Positions 21,110 to 51,381 of a stretch of 64,000 nt of DNA are shown piece after piece. Every line of letters starts with the position of its first letter. The stretch's first letter is position 1. The translations under genes were made by a program, and so were the position numbers. This DNA is from a virus. Its lineage: Duplodnaviria > Heunggongvirae > Uroviricota > Caudoviricetes. Below the pieces are notes generated by a model that did no database searches, was not told the DNA's origin, and saw only the letters and a list, made by a program, of their open reading frames with translations. The stretch spans positions 103,998 through 167,997 of the IMG/VR virus record IMGVR_UViG_3300049215_000227, one strand, 5' to 3'.

Positions 21110-21403
21110 TTGATGTCTAGACGTCAAACGTCCAGGGTTGTCCCTGGCGCTCCTACAATTTCACGACGCAGGGATCGAGCAACGGCGGCTCATCTGGCTC
21201 ATAACCAGAAAGGTGTACTAGATTCGACTTCTAGCCCTGCAACCATTCCACCAAAAGACGATATCACCATGGTATATGCCTTGAAACTGCTCAAGGTTTT
21301 ACTGTGGAAACTAGGCATTATCAAAGCTACCCCTGATGAGATGGAGTTCTTCCTTGCGCTGATAAGCGCTGACGAGATCTATTACGCTAGGAAGTTTACA
21401 TGA
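21110..21403 (+). CDS. hypothetical protein
   Basis: 97 aa. Confidence 0.3.
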   Translation: MMSRRQTSRVVPGAPTISRRRDRATAAHLAHNQKGVLDSTSSPATIPPKDDITMVYALKLLKVLLWKLGIIKATPDEMEFFLALISADEIYYARKFT

Positions 21404-22565: not shown

Positions 22566-22755
22566 CGTTCACAGCTCGGTAAGTCACGTCACGTTCGTGG
22601 CGGACTACTGCCCCAACACGTTCGAGGTGAACGGGGTACAAGCTGAACATAGCGGTCATGAATTGCCTCCAACAGAAGTCTGGATGGAGAACGCTCTCAG
22701 TCACGCGCGTGACTTGATGAGGAGAAAAGTCGAATGCCAATCAAGGGAGTCTTAA
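22537..22755 (+). CDS. hypothetical protein
   Basis: 72 aa. Confidence 0.35.
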   Translation: MAKIRFKGTNVHSSVSHVTFVADYCPNTFEVNGVQAEHSGHELPPTEVWMENALSHARDLMRRKVECQSRES

Positions 22756-23939
22756 ACAAAGCCCGTGTACCAGTCAAGATCTGGTCTGACATTTCCACTG
22801 TGGAAAGCGCTGCGTTGGATCAGCTCACCAACACAGCAAACTTGCCATTCGTCTTTAAGCACGTTGCGGCCATGCCAGACGTGCATCTCGGCAAGGGAGC
22901 AACTGTTGGATCTGTTATTGCTACTAAAGGTGCTATCTGTCCGGCAGCCGTCGGAGTTGATATCGGCTGCGGGATGGCAGCAGTACGTACCGACTTGGAC
23001 CCAAACGTCGTCCGCGACAAGATCACAGCAATCCGACTCTCGATTGAAAGGTCAATACCAGTCGGTCACGAAGGCAATAATAAGCTTACAAAGTCCGTCG
23101 AGCAGTGGAAGCTCTGGCAAGACTGGCAAAACCTAACCGTTATTGGTCACAACTCTTCAGACACAGCCGACATGTACAAGCGCGCTCGATCGCAGCTTGG
23201 CTCGTTGGGTGGAGGCAATCACTTCATTGAGATCTGCCTTGATACTCAGGACAGAGTGTGGGTGATGCTGCATTCTGGCTCCCGCAACGTGGGTAAGGTT
23301 GTCGCTGAGCGCCACATCGATAAAGCTAAGGACCTCATGAAGACAATGTTCATCAGTCTTCCTGACCCTGACCTAGCGTACTTTGCTCAGGGAACCCAAG
23401 ACTTCCAGAACTATCTGGCTGATCTTGAGTGGTGCCAGGAGTATGCTGCTCAGAACCGCAGGGAGATGATGCAGCGCGTTCTTAAGGATCTCAGCTACGC
23501 CGTGTACGGCGAGGACGGTCAGATCAACACTGATGTCAAGGTTAACTGCCACCACAACTACGTATCGAGGGAAGCCCACTATGGAGAAAACGTCCTCGTC
23601 ACAAGAAAGGGTGCTGTCAGAGCAAGAGAAGGAGATCTTAGTATTATCCCTGGTTCCATGGGTACTCGCTCTTACATCGTACGGGGACTTGGCAACCAGG
23701 ATTCGTTTTGCTCGTGCAGTCACGGTGCCGGCCGCGCAATGTCTCGTGGCGAGGCTAAGCGTACTTTCACTCTCAAGGATCTCGAAGAGCAAACTCGAGG
23801 GGTCGAATGCAGAAAGGACGAGGGAGTGCTTGACGAGATACCAGGAGCTTACAAGCCGATTGATCAGGTTATGGCAAACCAGACGGACCTCGTTGAAGTC
23901 CTTCATGAGCTACGACAGATAATGTGTATCAAGGGATGA
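22734..23939 (+). CDS. rtcB: RtcB-family RNA ligase (3'-phosphate/2',3'-cyclic phosphate RNA ligase)
   Basis: 401 aa with GGGNHFIEIC, CHHNY, and metal-binding His residues in RtcB order. The length is typical. Confidence 0.8.
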   Translation: MPIKGVLNKARVPVKIWSDISTVESAALDQLTNTANLPFVFKHVAAMPDVHLGKGATVGSVIATKGAICPAAVGVDIGCGMAAVRTDLDPNVVRDKITAIRLSIERSIPVGHEGNNKLTKSVEQWKLWQDWQNLTVIGHNSSDTADMYKRARSQLGSLGGGNHFIEICLDTQDRVWVMLHSGSRNVGKVVAERHIDKAKDLMKTMFISLPDPDLAYFAQGTQDFQNYLADLEWCQEYAAQNRREMMQRVLKDLSYAVYGEDGQINTDVKVNCHHNYVSREAHYGENVLVTRKGAVRAREGDLSIIPGSMGTRSYIVRGLGNQDSFCSCSHGAGRAMSRGEAKRTFTLKDLEEQTRGVECRKDEGVLDEIPGAYKPIDQVMANQTDLVEVLHELRQIMCIKG

Positions 23940-25270: not shown

Positions 25271-26101
25271 ATGATTAGAGTAGTAACTGATGACGGTTTG
25301 GCGTACAACATCGTCCCCACTATGTTTCCAGATGGCACATCTCAAGTCTGGAAGCTGCCAGAAGACCTTCTGAAGTCGCGCATCCTGGAAGTTACCTGGA
25401 ACTTTGAGAGTGAGCGCGAGATCATTGACCTACTCTCGCTTAGAAAGATTCAGCGCGGTCAATGGTATCTCCACATCCCTTTCCTCCCTTACGGACGCCA
25501 AGACAAAGAAGCGAGCAACACGTCGACGTTCAACCTCAGAGTATTTGCAGACTTAGTTAATCTGCTTGACTGCGCGGAGGTAACCTCAGTTGACTCCCAC
25601 AATCCAGAGGTTACTGGGCAGCTCATCAAGAACTTTACCAACGTCCCAGTGACCGCGCTGCACAAGTTGCTGGTCGATGAGACCCAGCCGGACTACCTCG
25701 TGTATCCTGACTTAGGCGCAAAGAACCGCTACTACACCTCTGACTTCTCCAGCATACCTCGCGTCATCTTCTACAAGGAGCGCGACCAGCTGACCGGTCA
25801 GATCACCGGACACACCCTATCGTACAGAGACGCTCAAGGCATCACCATCCAAGGCGCTGACATGGGCAAGATCGCTAGACCTGGACAGCGCTTCCTAATC
25901 GTTGATGACCTATGCGACGGTGGAGCTACATTCATCAGCATCGCGAGGAAGCTTCGCGAGCAGATTCCCGGCATCGAGATCGACCTGTTCGTGACTCATG
26001 GTGTCTTCAGTAAAGGTCGAGACATCCTTACAACTAACGGAATCAACAGAGTGTATACTACTAACAGCTTAACCAAAAACGGAGATGGATACAAAGTATG
26101 A
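25271..26101 (+). CDS. PRPP-synthetase-family pyrophosphokinase (candidate Adps of NARP1)
   Basis: 276 aa with the PRPP-binding loop FLIVDDLCDGGATF. Lies directly upstream of, and translationally coupled to, the NAMPT-like gene. Confidence 0.65.
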   Translation: MIRVVTDDGLAYNIVPTMFPDGTSQVWKLPEDLLKSRILEVTWNFESEREIIDLLSLRKIQRGQWYLHIPFLPYGRQDKEASNTSTFNLRVFADLVNLLDCAEVTSVDSHNPEVTGQLIKNFTNVPVTALHKLLVDETQPDYLVYPDLGAKNRYYTSDFSSIPRVIFYKERDQLTGQITGHTLSYRDAQGITIQGADMGKIARPGQRFLIVDDLCDGGATFISIARKLREQIPGIEIDLFVTHGVFSKGRDILTTNGINRVYTTNSLTKNGDGYKV

Positions 26102-27564
26102 AGATCAGACCTACGAACCTCAAAGACGGATATAAAACTGACCACCGCCGCCAGTACCCAGAGAACACCTCGCTGGTGTACTCAAACCTGACGGCACGCG
26201 CTTCGCGCGACCCTCGCTACACGCACGTGGTTCCGTTTGGGTTCCAAGCGTTCGTGCAGGAGCTGAAGGATAACTTCGACAAGGAGTTCTTTCAACTGCC
26301 GAAAAGCCAAGCGGTGTCAGCGTACAAGCGCCGTCTGGACACGTACCTAGGTCCTGGTGCAGTCCCTGTCGATCACATCGAAGCTCTCCATGACCTTGGC
26401 TACCTGCCGCTCCACATCAAGGCTCTTCCTGAGGGATCGCTCTGCCCGATCGGCGTTCCGATGTTCACCATCGTGAACACGAATAAGAACTTCTACTGGC
26501 TCACCAACGACCTCGAGACGCTCATCTCCACTGAGACCTGGAAGCCTATCACCAACGCGACGATCGCGTTTGAGTACCGCAAGGTCCTCCAAGGCGCGTG
26601 CATGCGCACCAACCCGGAGATGATCGAGTTCGTTCCTTGGCAAGGACACGACTTCTCCTTCCGCGGCATGGATGGCGTGAGCTCGGCAGCTCGCTCTGGT
26701 GCTGCTCACTTGCTGAGCTTCACCGGCACGGACACGATCCCAGCTATCGACTTCCTCGAGCAATACTACTGTGCGGACGCCGAGAAGGAGCTCATCGGAG
26801 GCTCTGTTCCTGCTACCGAGCACTCGGTCATGTGCATGGGCGGCCAGGAGACTGAGTTAGAGACGTTCAAGCGCCTCATCAACGATGTCTATCCTAGCGG
26901 CATCGTCTCCATCGTCTCCGACACGTGGGACTACTGGGACACGCTCACCAATAAAGCAGCTCTCCTCAAGAACGACATCATGGCCCGCAACGGTAAGGTC
27001 GTATTCCGCCCTGACTCCGGCGATCCCGTAAAGATCGTCTGCGGTGACCCTGATGCTCCCGTCGGTAGTCCGCAGCACAAAGGTTCGATCCAAGTGCTAT
27101 GGGACCTGTTCGGAGGTACGACAACCTCTACCGGTTATAAGCAGCTCGACTCGCATGTTGGCCTCATCTATGGTGACTCCATCACGCTGGAGCGCGCAGA
27201 AGCGATCGTTAACGGACTGGCGGCGAAAGGATTTGCTTCCACCAACGTGGTCTTCGGCATCGGGAGCTTCACCTATCAGTACAACACCCGCGACACGTTC
27301 GGCATGGCCATCAAGGCAACCTACGGTCGCATCGGCGATGCTCCAGTTGATCTCTTCAAGAACCCTAAGACGGACTCAGGAATGAAGAAGTCGGCTAAGG
27401 GATTGCTGCGAGTAAACGCTGACTTCTCGCTCAGTCAGCAGGTCACCCCGGAAGAGGAGAAGCAGGGCTTGTTGCAGACCATCTTCCTCGACGGCAACTT
27501 CGAGAACGTCCAGACGCTTGCTCAGATCAGGGCTCGTCTACTCAGCAACCTGAATGCTAAGTAA
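26098..27564 (+). CDS. nicotinamide phosphoribosyltransferase-family enzyme (NAMPT/NadV-like; candidate Namat)
   Basis: 488 aa, the NAMPT size. Fold-wide similarity (GTDT, SVPATEHS, GIGSFTYQ). The start overlaps the upstream stop (ATGA). Confidence 0.7.
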   Translation: MKIRPTNLKDGYKTDHRRQYPENTSLVYSNLTARASRDPRYTHVVPFGFQAFVQELKDNFDKEFFQLPKSQAVSAYKRRLDTYLGPGAVPVDHIEALHDLGYLPLHIKALPEGSLCPIGVPMFTIVNTNKNFYWLTNDLETLISTETWKPITNATIAFEYRKVLQGACMRTNPEMIEFVPWQGHDFSFRGMDGVSSAARSGAAHLLSFTGTDTIPAIDFLEQYYCADAEKELIGGSVPATEHSVMCMGGQETELETFKRLINDVYPSGIVSIVSDTWDYWDTLTNKAALLKNDIMARNGKVVFRPDSGDPVKIVCGDPDAPVGSPQHKGSIQVLWDLFGGTTTSTGYKQLDSHVGLIYGDSITLERAEAIVNGLAAKGFASTNVVFGIGSFTYQYNTRDTFGMAIKATYGRIGDAPVDLFKNPKTDSGMKKSAKGLLRVNADFSLSQQVTPEEEKQGLLQTIFLDGNFENVQTLAQIRARLLSNLNAK

Positions 27565-29601: not shown

Positions 29602-29789
29602 TGTGGGACGACTACGAAGGTTGGATTTACCACAATAAAGACGAAGAGCACTGGGAGCGATTTCGAGACAGCAAGATATACATAGTTCATAACTTATTAG
29701 ATTTCTTATTTAAACTAAGAATTATGAAGGATGTAGAAACGCATTACGACGCTGCGGGCTTCGTAGATAGGCACTGGAAACATGAATGA
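29601..29789 (+). CDS. hypothetical protein
   Basis: 62 aa. Confidence 0.3.
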   Translation: MWDDYEGWIYHNKDEEHWERFRDSKIYIVHNLLDFLFKLRIMKDVETHYDAAGFVDRHWKHE

Positions 29790-30237
29790 GCGCAGAAAGA
29801 TTTTCTTCTGGAACGAGCGTGATAAGTACGGCGCCTTCTCCAATTTTCATGAGGGTCCGTATGACATCGACGGCAAGTCGTGGCCGACTACGGAGCATTA
29901 TTTTGCAGCTCAAAAGACCATGGACGAGTCTGAGAGGGAAGCTATTCGGAAGGCGGCAACTCCGCTAGACGCTAAGAGGATGGGCAGAGTCGTTAAGCTT
30001 CGTCCTGACTGGGATAAGGTGAAGTACGACGTCATGCTAACAGCTCTTAGAGCTAAGTTTGGCAGCTCTCAAGAGCTCAAGAAGTTGCTCCTATCTACCG
30101 AAGATGCCCTGGTTTACGAGGACTCACCTTACGACAAGGTGTGGGGAACTGGAGTTCGCGGTGGCGTTGGCTCGGGTCAAAACCTACTAGGTAAAGCTCT
30201 CATGCAGGTGAGAGAGGAGTTGAGGAATCAATGCTGA
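29782..30237 (+). CDS. NADAR-domain protein (YbiA-like)
   Basis: FFWNERDKYGAFSNFHEGPYDIDGKSWPTTEHYFAAQK is the NADAR signature (FSNF...W.T.EHYFQA.K). Confidence 0.6.
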   Translation: MNERRKIFFWNERDKYGAFSNFHEGPYDIDGKSWPTTEHYFAAQKTMDESEREAIRKAATPLDAKRMGRVVKLRPDWDKVKYDVMLTALRAKFGSSQELKKLLLSTEDALVYEDSPYDKVWGTGVRGGVGSGQNLLGKALMQVREELRNQC

Positions 30238-30389
30238 ATCTCGTGCTATCTATCCTTGATATTCTTGGCGCCATCGTGTGCGGCTACTGCGCCTACAAAG
30301 CTTACAAAGACCCTAACACGTACCCTACGTGGTACATGTTTATGGCCGGTTTCTTTTGCTTGTTCAACATCTTTGCAGCCATGTTATAA
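30231..30389 (+). CDS. small membrane protein (52 aa)
   Basis: ATG overlaps the NADAR stop (ATGCTGA). Two hydrophobic helices. Not in the ORF track because it is under 60 aa. Confidence 0.3.
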   Translation: MLNLVLSILDILGAIVCGYCAYKAYKDPNTYPTWYMFMAGFFCLFNIFAAML

Positions 30390-30406
30390 TGAGCTTGGAC
30401 CTGTCC

Positions 30407-30496
30407 GTCGGTTACGGGGCAGAGCCTTATAAGCTCTTTAAGCACTAGATTAGTGTTGCACGAGGGTTCGACTCCCTACAGGTCTACCAACTTTAT
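30407..30496 (+). tRNA. class II tRNA (90 nt, long variable arm), anticodon loop CUUAUAA (UAU)
   Basis: Acceptor GGACCTG/CAGGTCT, A73 with CCA encoded. Anticodon stem AGAGC/GCTCT. Variable-arm hairpin CACTA/TAGTG. T-arm GAGGG-TTCGACT-CCCTA. Isolated from the main array. Confidence 0.4.
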
Positions 30497-50158: not shown

Positions 50159-50245
50159 CCTACGGCCGGCTGTAACCCGGTTGTCTCTAAATCGTAGGGT
50201 GGTAAGACGAATGGTTCGATTCCTTCACCCTCCACCAAATTTGCT
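50159..50245 (+). tRNA. tRNA-Tyr(GTA), class II
   Basis: Acceptor GGAGTGT/ACCCTCC (one mismatch), A73 + CCA. Anticodon stem GCCGG/CCGGT, loop CTGTAAC. Long variable arm. T-stem with a bulged T. Confidence 0.45.
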
Positions 50246-50253
50246 AGCTTAGA

Positions 50254-50327
50254 CCAATTGGCAGAGTCACTTCACTTAAAACGAAGTCAGTAAGGGTTCG
50301 ACTCCCTTAGCTAGCACCAAGCCCCAG
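50254..50327 (+). tRNA. tRNA with anticodon TAA (Leu-type) in a short-variable-arm (type I) scaffold
   Basis: Acceptor GCTAGCT/AGCTAGC, A73 + CCA. Anticodon loop CTTAAAA. 4-5 nt variable region. T-arm AAGGG-TTCGACT-CCCTT. Confidence 0.45.
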
Positions 50328-50331
50328 TAGA

Positions 50332-50405
50332 CCAACTGGAAGAGTCGTCTCTCTCAAAAAGAGAAGGTTGTGAGTTCGAATCTCACTTGGGGCACCAGAT
50401 TTAAG
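50332..50405 (+). tRNA. tRNA with anticodon CAA (Leu-type), type I scaffold
   Basis: Acceptor GCCCCAG/TTGGGGC, A73 + CCA. Anticodon stem TCTCT/AGAGA, loop CTCAAAA. T-arm GTGAG-TTCGAAT-CTCAC. Confidence 0.5.
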
Positions 50406-51299: not shown

Positions 51300-51373
51300 G
51301 CTCAAGTAACCCAACTGGAAGAGGTACTAGGTCGAGAGCCTAGGTGTTGTGGGTTCGACTCCCACCTTGAGCA
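51300..51373 (+). tRNA. tRNA with anticodon GAG (Leu-type), type I scaffold
   Basis: Acceptor GCTCAAG/CTTGAGC, A73 + CCA. Anticodon stem CTAGG/CCTAG, loop TCGAGAG. T-arm GTGGG-TTCGACT-CCCAC. Confidence 0.45.
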
Positions 51374-51381
51374 CCAAGTTT

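Follow-up and report, generated by a model that had tools for sequence, protein, structure and literature searches.

Almost all bacteria read the codon AUA only after TilS rewrites a CAU anticodon, and an ordinary isoleucyl-tRNA synthetase (IleRS) rejects the anticodon UAU. Here we describe a phage tRNA gene with the anticodon UAU, tRNA(UAU), which carries a second hairpin resembling an anticodon arm. It lies in a stretch of 64,000 nucleotides (nt) from a Caudoviricetes virus (IMG/VR virus record IMGVR_UViG_3300049215_000227, positions 103,998 to 167,997), and by "the window" we mean the whole of this stretch. One of the closest described systems is the bacterial lysidine-independent tRNA-Ile(UAU), which has UAU, U33, A37 and A73 in common with the window tRNA, as well as AUA decoding without lysidine or TilS. 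The window tRNA most probably works in the same way. The bacterial tRNA, however, is of class I and is served by a host IleRS that has co-evolved for U34, whereas the phage family adds a GAU arm and often has a reduced D arm. E. coli IleRS charges UAU tRNA-Ile 360-fold less efficiently than the lysidine form, and the IleRS enzymes that accept U34 carry special substitutions, such as Arg865 in M. mobile (PMC3575796).

Hairpins that imitate an anticodon arm have been described in other settings. In the thrS operator of E. coli, an mRNA hairpin copying an anticodon loop is bound by ThrRS outside the normal position of a tRNA anticodon. Mimics of this type lie in mRNA leaders, where they regulate translation, and not within a tRNA. 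In an engineered allo-tRNA chassis, an anticodon-arm mimic placed in the variable arm recruits a synthetase apart from the decoding anticodon, and such a pseudo-anticodon can enhance aminoacylation (PMC7590224). That system is synthetic, uses a GUG pseudo-anticodon and a HisRS fused to an extra binding domain, and has a modest effect (PMC7590224), whereas the phage case would be natural and would use the unmodified host enzyme. The nematode nev-tRNA-Ile(UAU) resembles the phage tRNA in its class II length, its UAU anticodon and the rarity of its codon (PMC3333845). It is, however, a eukaryotic descendant of tRNA-Leu that accepts only Leu (PMC3333845), while the phage family is without Leu features and its AUA codons appear to mean Ile.

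Similar in shape are the allo-tRNA(UAU) species, tRNA-Sec-like false positives with a long extra arm, a D stem capped by a tetraloop and the anticodon UAU (PMC5389517). No other allo-tRNA anticodon was as abundant as UAU in metagenomes of soil and sediment, and the authors also remarked on 'five-stem-junction' structures (PMC5389517). The window copy can also fold with an acceptor stem of 8 and a T stem of 4 base pairs (bp), an 8/4 arrangement, and three members of the phage family lie in contigs of metagenome-assembled genomes (MAGs) from Acidobacteriota and Elusimicrobia. By description the two groups are set apart, as the phage family is 7/5 and not 8/4 or 9/3, the two layouts of the 12-bp acceptor branch of allo-tRNAs, and has A73 (63/64) in place of the G73 or U73 that confers Ser identity together with a long variable arm. 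Mukai et al. judged allo-tRNA(UAU) to be probably non-translational and did not describe the GAU loop (PMC5389517). We consider that allo-tRNA(UAU) may overlap the two-armed phage family. The window tRNA is not a tRNA-Sec (RF01852); its score is below the gathering score, its anticodon is UAU and not UCA, and its D stem has 4 bp instead of 6.

An extra arm resembling an anticodon arm with a GAU loop

Collection scans of public data were performed with the extra-arm sequence alone (AGCACTAGATTRGTGT), the anticodon being outside the pattern. We obtained ∼20 tRNA-like loci from viral contigs, three loci from species-representative genomes and 79 loci from metagenomes, of which 77 are a tRNA or part of one. 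The three genome loci are on MAG contigs (Elusimicrobia, Acidobacteriota and Blastocatellia) that consist of little else than very large tRNA arrays. Every full-length tRNA-like match of these scans had the anticodon UAU. The invariance of the arm sequence in them is circular, because the arm itself was the anchor.

We also scanned viral contigs independently of the hairpin (CTTATA, 26-40 nt, then GGTTCGAATCC), which gave at least 119 matches, at least 96 of them tRNA-like and at least 79 distinct. Among the matches listed, a 7-nt extra-arm loop centred on GAU was present in 70 of the 79 distinct long tRNA(UAU), and it was borne by 33 different stems of 4-5 bp (UCUC/GAGA, CCGC/GCGG, GCUC/GAGC and GCAC/GUGC are examples). 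Some of the remaining nine seem to have been placed in the wrong register by the simple hairpin finder. The consensus of the loop is CAGAUUA (YAGAUUA); numbered as an anticodon loop, the counts among the 79 listed are C32 60, A33 69, G34 71, A35 72, U36 71, U37 54 and A38 62. Between the arm and the T stem, 51 of the same 79 have a linker of 5 nt and 19 have one of 6 nt, which is an ordinary variable-loop length. An earlier idea, that an invariant 17-nt arm is a specific protein site, was an artefact of the search pattern, as only the loop is conserved in the hairpin-independent scan. In a sample of 82 distinct rows (A5), covariation is seen at all four core pairs of the arm (73:95, for instance, is GC in 24, CG in 18, UA in 16 and GU in 15), and position 32:38 is unpaired in 63 rows, as it would be in a loop.

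This pseudo-loop equals the tRNA-Ile(GAU) loop CUGAUAA at five of seven positions, namely 32, 34, 35, 36 and 38. The remaining two are A33 and U37 instead of the U33 and A37 required for decoding, and therefore the ribosome should not decode with the GAU arm.

As a specificity control, ARAGORN was run over all 3.5 Mb of fetched loci. AGAU was found in the extra arm of 127 of the 132 distinct long tRNA(UAU) genes, whereas a GAU-centred 7-nt loop occurred in 1/117 Leu, 0/128 Ser and 0/66 Tyr tRNAs (1/311 altogether). Taken from these comparisons, the extra arm is by its sequence a look-alike of an anticodon arm that presents GAU, the anticodon of the major tRNA-Ile. It goes specifically with UAU tRNAs, and a normal variable loop comes after it. 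The initial annotation had proposed a Leu/Tyr class II scaffold re-purposed by anticodon mutation. The conserved YAGAUUA loop with its normal variable loop, nearly absent from the Leu, Ser and Tyr tRNAs, speaks against that origin, as does the D arm (4-bp stem, 4-5 nt loop; canonical and Ile-like in other members), which is unlike those of Leu, Ser and Tyr tRNAs. The class II assignment itself does not hold; the anticodon is not that of Leu, Ser or Tyr, and the 3' linker is 5-6 nt in 70/79 (matches listed) versus the 1-3 nt of a class II arm. Other over-long phage tRNAs (82-92 nt), for Asn, Met, Lys, Gly, Thr, Gln and Trp, were observed to have a short hairpin in the variable region, typically capped by a GNRA-type tetraloop such as GUAA, GAAA or GCAA.

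Two further ideas about the arm were not retained. Its stem could have come from the anticodon stem of a co-resident tRNA(CAU) or tRNA(GAU), but the likeness to the stem of the window tRNA-Met (AGCACU/GGUGCU) is not seen in other carriers. AGAUU fits what we take to be an RNase E-type motif; we gave such a site low weight, as position 37 varies in the hairpin-independent sample (matches listed), and to our knowledge Lactobacillus hosts are without RNase E. A non-exhaustive literature search returned no paper with the hairpin sequence and none on a natural GAU pseudo-anticodon arm in tRNA-Ile. The two-armed tRNA(UAU) is an essentially undescribed, widespread variant of AUA-decoding tRNA.

Covariation of the two-armed tRNA(UAU) family

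A covariance model was built from 14 sequences, and pairing was followed in an alignment of 64 distinct members (A4) and in the sample of 82 rows. Over 130 distinct sequences belong to the family, and they come from viral and metagenomic contigs, MAG-binned array contigs and cultured phages. In the alignment of 64, 95.3% of the cells are paired as against 64.4% after shuffling, and the covariation score is 0.743 as against 0.171, a value that none of 500 shuffles reached; slid controls, in which the partner was moved by 1-3 columns, gave ∼40% paired cells. Every pair of the acceptor, D, anticodon and T stems changes on both sides, and the sample of 82 agrees. All seven acceptor pairs covary, with 99.7-99.8% of cells paired. 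The commonest 1:72 pair of the family is G.U and the commonest 4:69 pair C-G, the latter being present in the window tRNA and in 52 of 64 relatives.

All 64 distinct members have NUUAU(A/G)N as their anticodon loop, A73 is present in 63/64 and CCA is encoded in 47/64. The expectation that the UAU anticodon should read AUA is borne out to the extent that the UAU stem-loop covaries in the 64 and in the 82 distinct relatives with UAU invariant. A search for an alternative fold placing a Leu or Tyr anticodon at 34-36 gave none, and there is no other 5-bp stem with a 7-nt loop having U33 and a purine at 37. Taken together, the window gene is almost certainly a genuine tRNA gene.

A syntenic tRNA(UAU) is present directly after the NADAR gene in a related phage contig, L001 (85% protein identity in the AAA ATPase). 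This copy has the plain 7/5 arrangement, a wholly different acceptor stem, a near-identical extra arm and the same UAU. Its anticodon stem, AGAAG/CUUCU, differs from the AGAGC/GCUCU of the window by two compensatory changes. ARAGORN misses it.

G1.U72, which is unusual for tRNA-Ile, is the commonest first pair of phage tRNA(UAU) both with the arm (34/64, and 58/79 among the matches listed) and without it (36/78 among the matches listed). In two metagenome contigs (L138 and L177), a two-armed tRNA(UAU) lacks everything before the 3' strand of its anticodon stem, and the part that is left is joined a few bases past the CCA end of another tRNA; this could be a recombination remnant or a split gene.

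Structure of the window copy

ARAGORN found 31 tRNA genes in the window and called one of them tRNA-Ile(tat), the gene described here (Table 1). A covariance model (R1) made from relatives matched the same gene with 81.3 bits (E ∼1e-18), its sole such match in the window. Among Rfam families tRNA-Sec came out best, with 29.5 bits, short of its gathering score of 47; the score of the general tRNA model of Rfam was even lower. The initial annotation had placed a 90-nt gene at 30407-30496; a gene is indeed there, but its ends are different, with the start shifted by 10 nt and the end by 7 nt. Its other descriptive points (loop CUUAUAA with UAU, hairpinned extra arm, A73, encoded CCA, adjacency to the NADAR gene and a distance of ∼18 kb to the array) were all found, and the tRNA-Ile(tat) call came from one of the programs it had suggested, tRNAscan-SE or ARAGORN.

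Table 1. Positions in the window of the tRNA(UAU) gene, its parts, its neighbours and other tRNA genes
Feature	Position	Strand	Remarks
Whole tRNA(UAU) gene	30397-30489	+	93 nt, CCA encoded; ARAGORN and covariance model R1
Acceptor stem, 5' strand GGACCUG	30397-30403	+	Pairs with 30479-30485 (CAGGUCU); gives G1.U72 and C4-G69
Reduced D arm, stem CCGU/ACGG, loop CGGUU	30405-30417	+	From the minimum free energy (MFE) fold; U30404 is the sole nt between acceptor and D stem
Anticodon arm, stem AGAGC/GCUCU, loop CUUAUAA	30421-30437	+	Loop 30426-30432; UAU 30428-30430; U33, A37; all five stem pairs covary
Extra pseudo-anticodon arm, stem AGCAC/GUGUU, 7-nt loop UAGAUUA	30441-30457	+	Loop 30446-30452; GAU 30448-30450
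Linker GCAC	30458-30461	+	Corresponds to an ordinary short variable loop; with the 8/4 fold it is 5 nt, GCACG
T arm GAGGG / UUCGACU / CCCUA	30462-30478	+	G49.A65 mismatch; alternative 4-bp T stem, with U8-A65 extending the acceptor to 8 bp
Discriminator A73 and encoded CCA	30486-30489	+	A at 30486, CCA 30487-30489; from sequence
RtcB RNA ligase gene	22734-23936		Within 8 kb upstream of tRNA(UAU)
PRPP-synthetase-like protein gene	25271-26098		Within 8 kb upstream
Nicotinamide phosphoribosyltransferase gene	26098-27561		Within 8 kb upstream
NADAR gene	29782-30237		Upstream of tRNA(UAU); Pfam E = 6.9e-41
52-codon open reading frame (ORF)	30231-30389		Its stop bounds the gap holding tRNA(UAU)
ATG	30495		Other bound of the gap
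Second isolated tRNA, CAU	21167-21245		C1xA72 mismatch
Main tRNA array	from 48468		∼18 kb from tRNA(UAU)
Four tRNA-Leu genes (UAA, CAA, GAG, UAG)	50243-50319, 50321-50397, 51300-51376, 57372-57448		77 nt each
tRNA with loop CUUCUAA	51228-51298		71 nt; UCU, Arg AGA; begins with G1.U72
tRNA with loop UUCCUAA	51382-51452		71 nt; CCU, Arg AGG

The canonical features of an elongator tRNA were observed in the window copy: a 7-bp acceptor, a 5-bp anticodon stem with a 7-nt loop having U33 and a purine at 37, a 5-bp T stem with a UUCRA T loop (UUCGACU) and a 3' NCCA end (ACCA), with one mismatch, G49.A65, specific to this copy. The D arm is not standard. A standard D arm would have a linker of U8 and N9, a 3-4 bp stem and a loop of 7-11 nt with G18 and G19; here the linker is a single nucleotide, the stem has 4 bp, and the 5-nt loop, CGGUU, still holds GG. 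Many relatives have the same reduced D arm, which covaries, and other members have a canonical Ile-like D arm. By inspection, we saw no complementarity that would allow kissing between the UAU and GAU loops.

The MFE fold of the window tRNA has an 8-bp acceptor and a 4-bp T stem (-31 kcal/mol, z = -2.0). Across the family, the T stem has 5 bp with 99.7% of its cells paired and the acceptor has 7 bp; the lone unpaired 49:65 cell in the alignment of 64 matches the G49.A65 of the window, and its nearest relatives, L123 and L139, carry U49-A65. The 8/4 fold arises because a private change of U49 to G lets U8 pair with A65. Judged from these sequences, the family consensus is 7/5, and the 8/4 fold appears as a private by-product in the window copy, which is no argument for membership among the allo-tRNAs.

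AUA codons of carrier phages behave as isoleucine codons

Of the 803 Ile-box codons in the window, which has a GC content of 50%, 108 (13%) are AUA. We performed a codon-column test in which the ORFs of carrier and non-carrier loci, called crudely, were clustered and each cluster aligned. At 233 AUA codons of carriers, the homologue columns had I at 0.28-0.30, V at 0.17-0.20 and L at 0.11-0.16, which is the same profile as for AUU and AUC and is unlike those of Leu codons (L 0.43-0.52), Ser codons, Tyr codons and AUG. The signal, though indirect, is clear and indicates that AUA still means isoleucine in carrier phages. The suggestion of a suppressor-like tRNA does not agree with this behaviour. 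As AUA is 13% of the Ile codons, a tRNA inserting Leu, Ser or Tyr would damage about 1 in 8 Ile positions of the phage proteins.

The window has a tRNA-Ile(GAU) and no Ile2(CAU). Its two CAU tRNAs look like an initiator (C1xA72) and an elongator Met tRNA (acceptor CGCUACG, near the E. coli GGCUACG). Since both look Met-type, tRNA(UAU) is the only AUA decoder seen in the window.

Distribution of tRNA(UAU) with and without the arm

BLAST of the hairpin of the window clade against cultured phages gave no match. The conclusion that cultured phages have no homologue was, however, overturned by queries from other clades of the family. The two-armed tRNA(UAU) is present but unannotated in the Synechococcus phages S-SRM01 and S-SKS1 and in the Lactobacillus phages LpeD and Lpa804, and it is annotated as tRNA-Ile in Levilactobacillus phage ENFP1 and Lactobacillus phage 3-521. 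The sequences from S-SRM01, S-SKS1, LpeD and ENFP1 all have UAU and an arm loop of CAGAUUA, CCGAUUA or CAGAUGG; Lpa804 and 3-521 are known from partial BLAST matches covering 62% and 45% of the query.

Among the T4-like carriers, the order in the array is Arg(UCU), Leu(UAA), CAU, UAU, the classic rare-codon set. The tRNA(CAU) directly precedes tRNA(UAU) in four T4-like contigs (L032, L033, L036 and L037) and directly follows it in S-SKS1 (L435). The anticodon arm of the T4-like tRNA(CAU) is GACGG-CUCAUAA-CCGUC or close to it (GGCAG-UUCAUAC-CUGCC in L033), which we take to resemble tRNA-Ile2. These four phages and S-SKS1 may thus carry both a lysidine-dependent and a lysidine-independent AUA decoder.

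Armless tRNA(UAU) of class I length is common in viral contigs (at least 92 tRNA-like among 120 matches listed), and shares with the two-armed form a frequent G1.U72 and A73.

The isolated position noted in the initial annotation is true of the window lineage and is specific to it; in most carriers the gene is inside a tRNA array. A conserved neighbour that might be a dedicated partner enzyme was sought, and no protein was common to the window lineage and the T4-like carriers. An HExxH protein near the gene in T4-like contigs was discarded as a partner, as only 5 of 80 HExxH loci carry the tRNA. HNH endonuclease genes lie directly downstream of two-armed tRNA(UAU) in two unrelated phages (L001:7834-8162, and 1751-2371 of L436, the Lactobacillus phage LpeD); the one in L001 is an insertion relative to the window.

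Possible separation of tRNA identity and decoding between the two arms

The features of a lysidine-independent tRNA-Ile(UAU), namely UAU, A37, A38 or C38, and A73, are all present, and tRNA(UAU), which would be charged with Ile, probably delivers Ile to AUA. As its UAU anticodon could not be modified by TilS, AUA decoding would be independent of lysidine formation. The explanation that we prefer, and whose chances we judge to be evenly balanced, is that of a lysidine-independent AUA decoder for Ile in which the GAU arm helps IleRS to accept U34. The tRNA would be transcribed within the surrounding operon and cut out by tRNA processing enzymes. The pseudo-anticodon arm would then give the host IleRS the G34-A35-U36 signal that is missing from an anticodon with U34, either by making an additional contact or by changing places with the true anticodon arm at a common hinge. 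For charging, the GAU arm could be stacked below the D stem, and for decoding the UAU arm could take that place. A swap is conceivable because the two arms match in size and depart from the core at a single hinge, and the second arm is then followed by a normal variable loop. That the extra arm works through IleRS is itself a tentative proposal, for which we see somewhat less than an even chance. We hold with similar reserve that this might be a natural two-armed phage tRNA in which the host IleRS reads the GAU arm and the ribosome the UAU arm, so that identity and decoding are physically separated.

Several observations weigh against this explanation. In E. coli, t6A37 is a strong IleRS determinant, and the pseudo-loop, having U37, is without A37 and so lacks it. 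The single anticodon-binding site of IleRS would, moreover, have to engage an arm that is joined to the tRNA in the variable region. The extra arm is not obligatory, given how common armless tRNA(UAU) is in viral contigs. Two of the three collection scans took the hairpin as their anchor, and the unbiased one, limited to the matches listed, relied on one particular T-loop sequence. Lactic acid bacteria reportedly have their own tRNA-Ile(UAU) and an IleRS recognising it, yet Lactobacillus phages carry the arm. Six CUA-converted allo-tRNA(UAU) species were inactive in E. coli (PMC5389517). This inactivity is not decisive, because the assay would also fail for a tRNA with anticodon-dependent Ile identity.

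If IleRS does read the spare arm, it would be a new principle of tRNA identity, with an identity element moved to an auxiliary arm. A phage could then decode AUA in any host without TilS or an adapted IleRS, a portable release from anticodon-dependent aminoacylation. It would also offer a ready design for reassigning sense codons with anticodon-dependent synthetases, which so far has been only engineered, with modest effect. In the genomes of cultured cyanophages and Lactobacillus phages such genes have been overlooked or lack annotation, and they may equal RNAs set aside as non-translational 'allo-tRNA(UAU)'.

An alternative that we consider unlikely, but that deserves serious weight, also has AUA read as Ile. 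IleRS would charge the tRNA through its true anticodon loop (A35, U36, t6A37 and A38, with A73), and the GAU hairpin would have a role other than with IleRS. It might curb misreading of AUG by U34, recruit or block a modification enzyme, or resist or decoy a tRNA-Ile nuclease. The first of these would answer a real fidelity problem, as the M. mobile tRNA-Ile(UAU) misreads AUG on E. coli ribosomes and does not tell it from AUA (PMC3575796). The occurrence of armless tRNA(UAU) in many phages and the U37 of the pseudo-loop, in place of A37, are in line with this alternative, and RtcB and the NAD-salvage genes of the window provide an anti-defence context. However, none of these roles predicts that the triplet should be the exact cognate Ile anticodon with C32 and A38 matching too, and no protein is conserved beside the gene across lineages. 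In addition, we know of no anticodon nuclease specific to tRNA-Ile, which counts against the nuclease role.

It is improbable that the gene makes a non-translational tRNA-like RNA, be it regulatory, a decoy or associated with a mobile element, a proposal made by Mukai et al. for most allo-tRNA(UAU). The absence of amber suppression by the six CUA-converted variants, two of which were toxic (PMC5389517), would fit such an RNA. So would the best Rfam match, tRNA-Sec below threshold, the reduced D arm, the HNH endonuclease genes beside some copies, and the 3' halves in L138 and L177, which suggest recombination. Conservation of the decoding hallmarks (7-bp acceptor, 5-bp T stem, UUCGA-type T loop, U33, A37, A73 and encoded CCA), however, argues for a translational role, together with the invariant anticodon, the place of the gene in arrays beside rare-codon tRNAs and the share of AUA among Ile codons; amber conversion, moreover, would destroy an anticodon-dependent Ile identity. 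Finally, a recoding tRNA, with a class II body charged by LeuRS, SerRS or TyrRS and a non-Ile residue inserted at AUA, is very improbable, for although the extra arm and A73 occur in tRNA-Leu and tRNA-Tyr, the nematode nev-tRNA(UAU) is charged only with Leu (PMC3333845) and allo-tRNAs insert Ser at Leu codons in E. coli (PMC5389517), the AUA columns have an Ile and not a Leu, Ser or Tyr profile, carriers would mistranslate ∼1 in 8 of their own Ile codons, the arm geometry and GAU loop are unlike Leu, Ser and Tyr variable arms, the D-arm features of those tRNAs are absent and the window phage's own Leu tRNAs are without a long arm.

Genomic setting and other tRNA genes of the window

The tRNA(UAU) gene exactly occupies the gap between the stop of the 52-codon ORF and the next ATG. 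Promoter-like and terminator-like sites were sought around the gene and none was found, and therefore tRNA(UAU) is probably a product of processing of an operon transcript. The upstream genes for RtcB, the PRPP-synthetase-like protein, nicotinamide phosphoribosyltransferase and then the NADAR protein look like a neighbourhood of tRNA repair plus NAD salvage (counter-defence).

The second isolated tRNA of the window, with the anticodon CAU, has the C1xA72 mismatch that is a bacterial initiator hallmark and is without the three G-C pairs usual in the anticodon stem of initiators.

All four tRNA-Leu genes of the window have a 5-nt variable loop, A73 and a class I shape, without the usual long Leu arm. 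About half of the Leu tRNAs called by ARAGORN in all the fetched phage loci are <82 nt. Two 71-nt Arg tRNAs were missed by ARAGORN and found by the covariance model. Both have A73 and the reduced D arm of the UAU tRNA, so that the decoders of AGA, AGG and AUA in the window phage have an unusual body in common.

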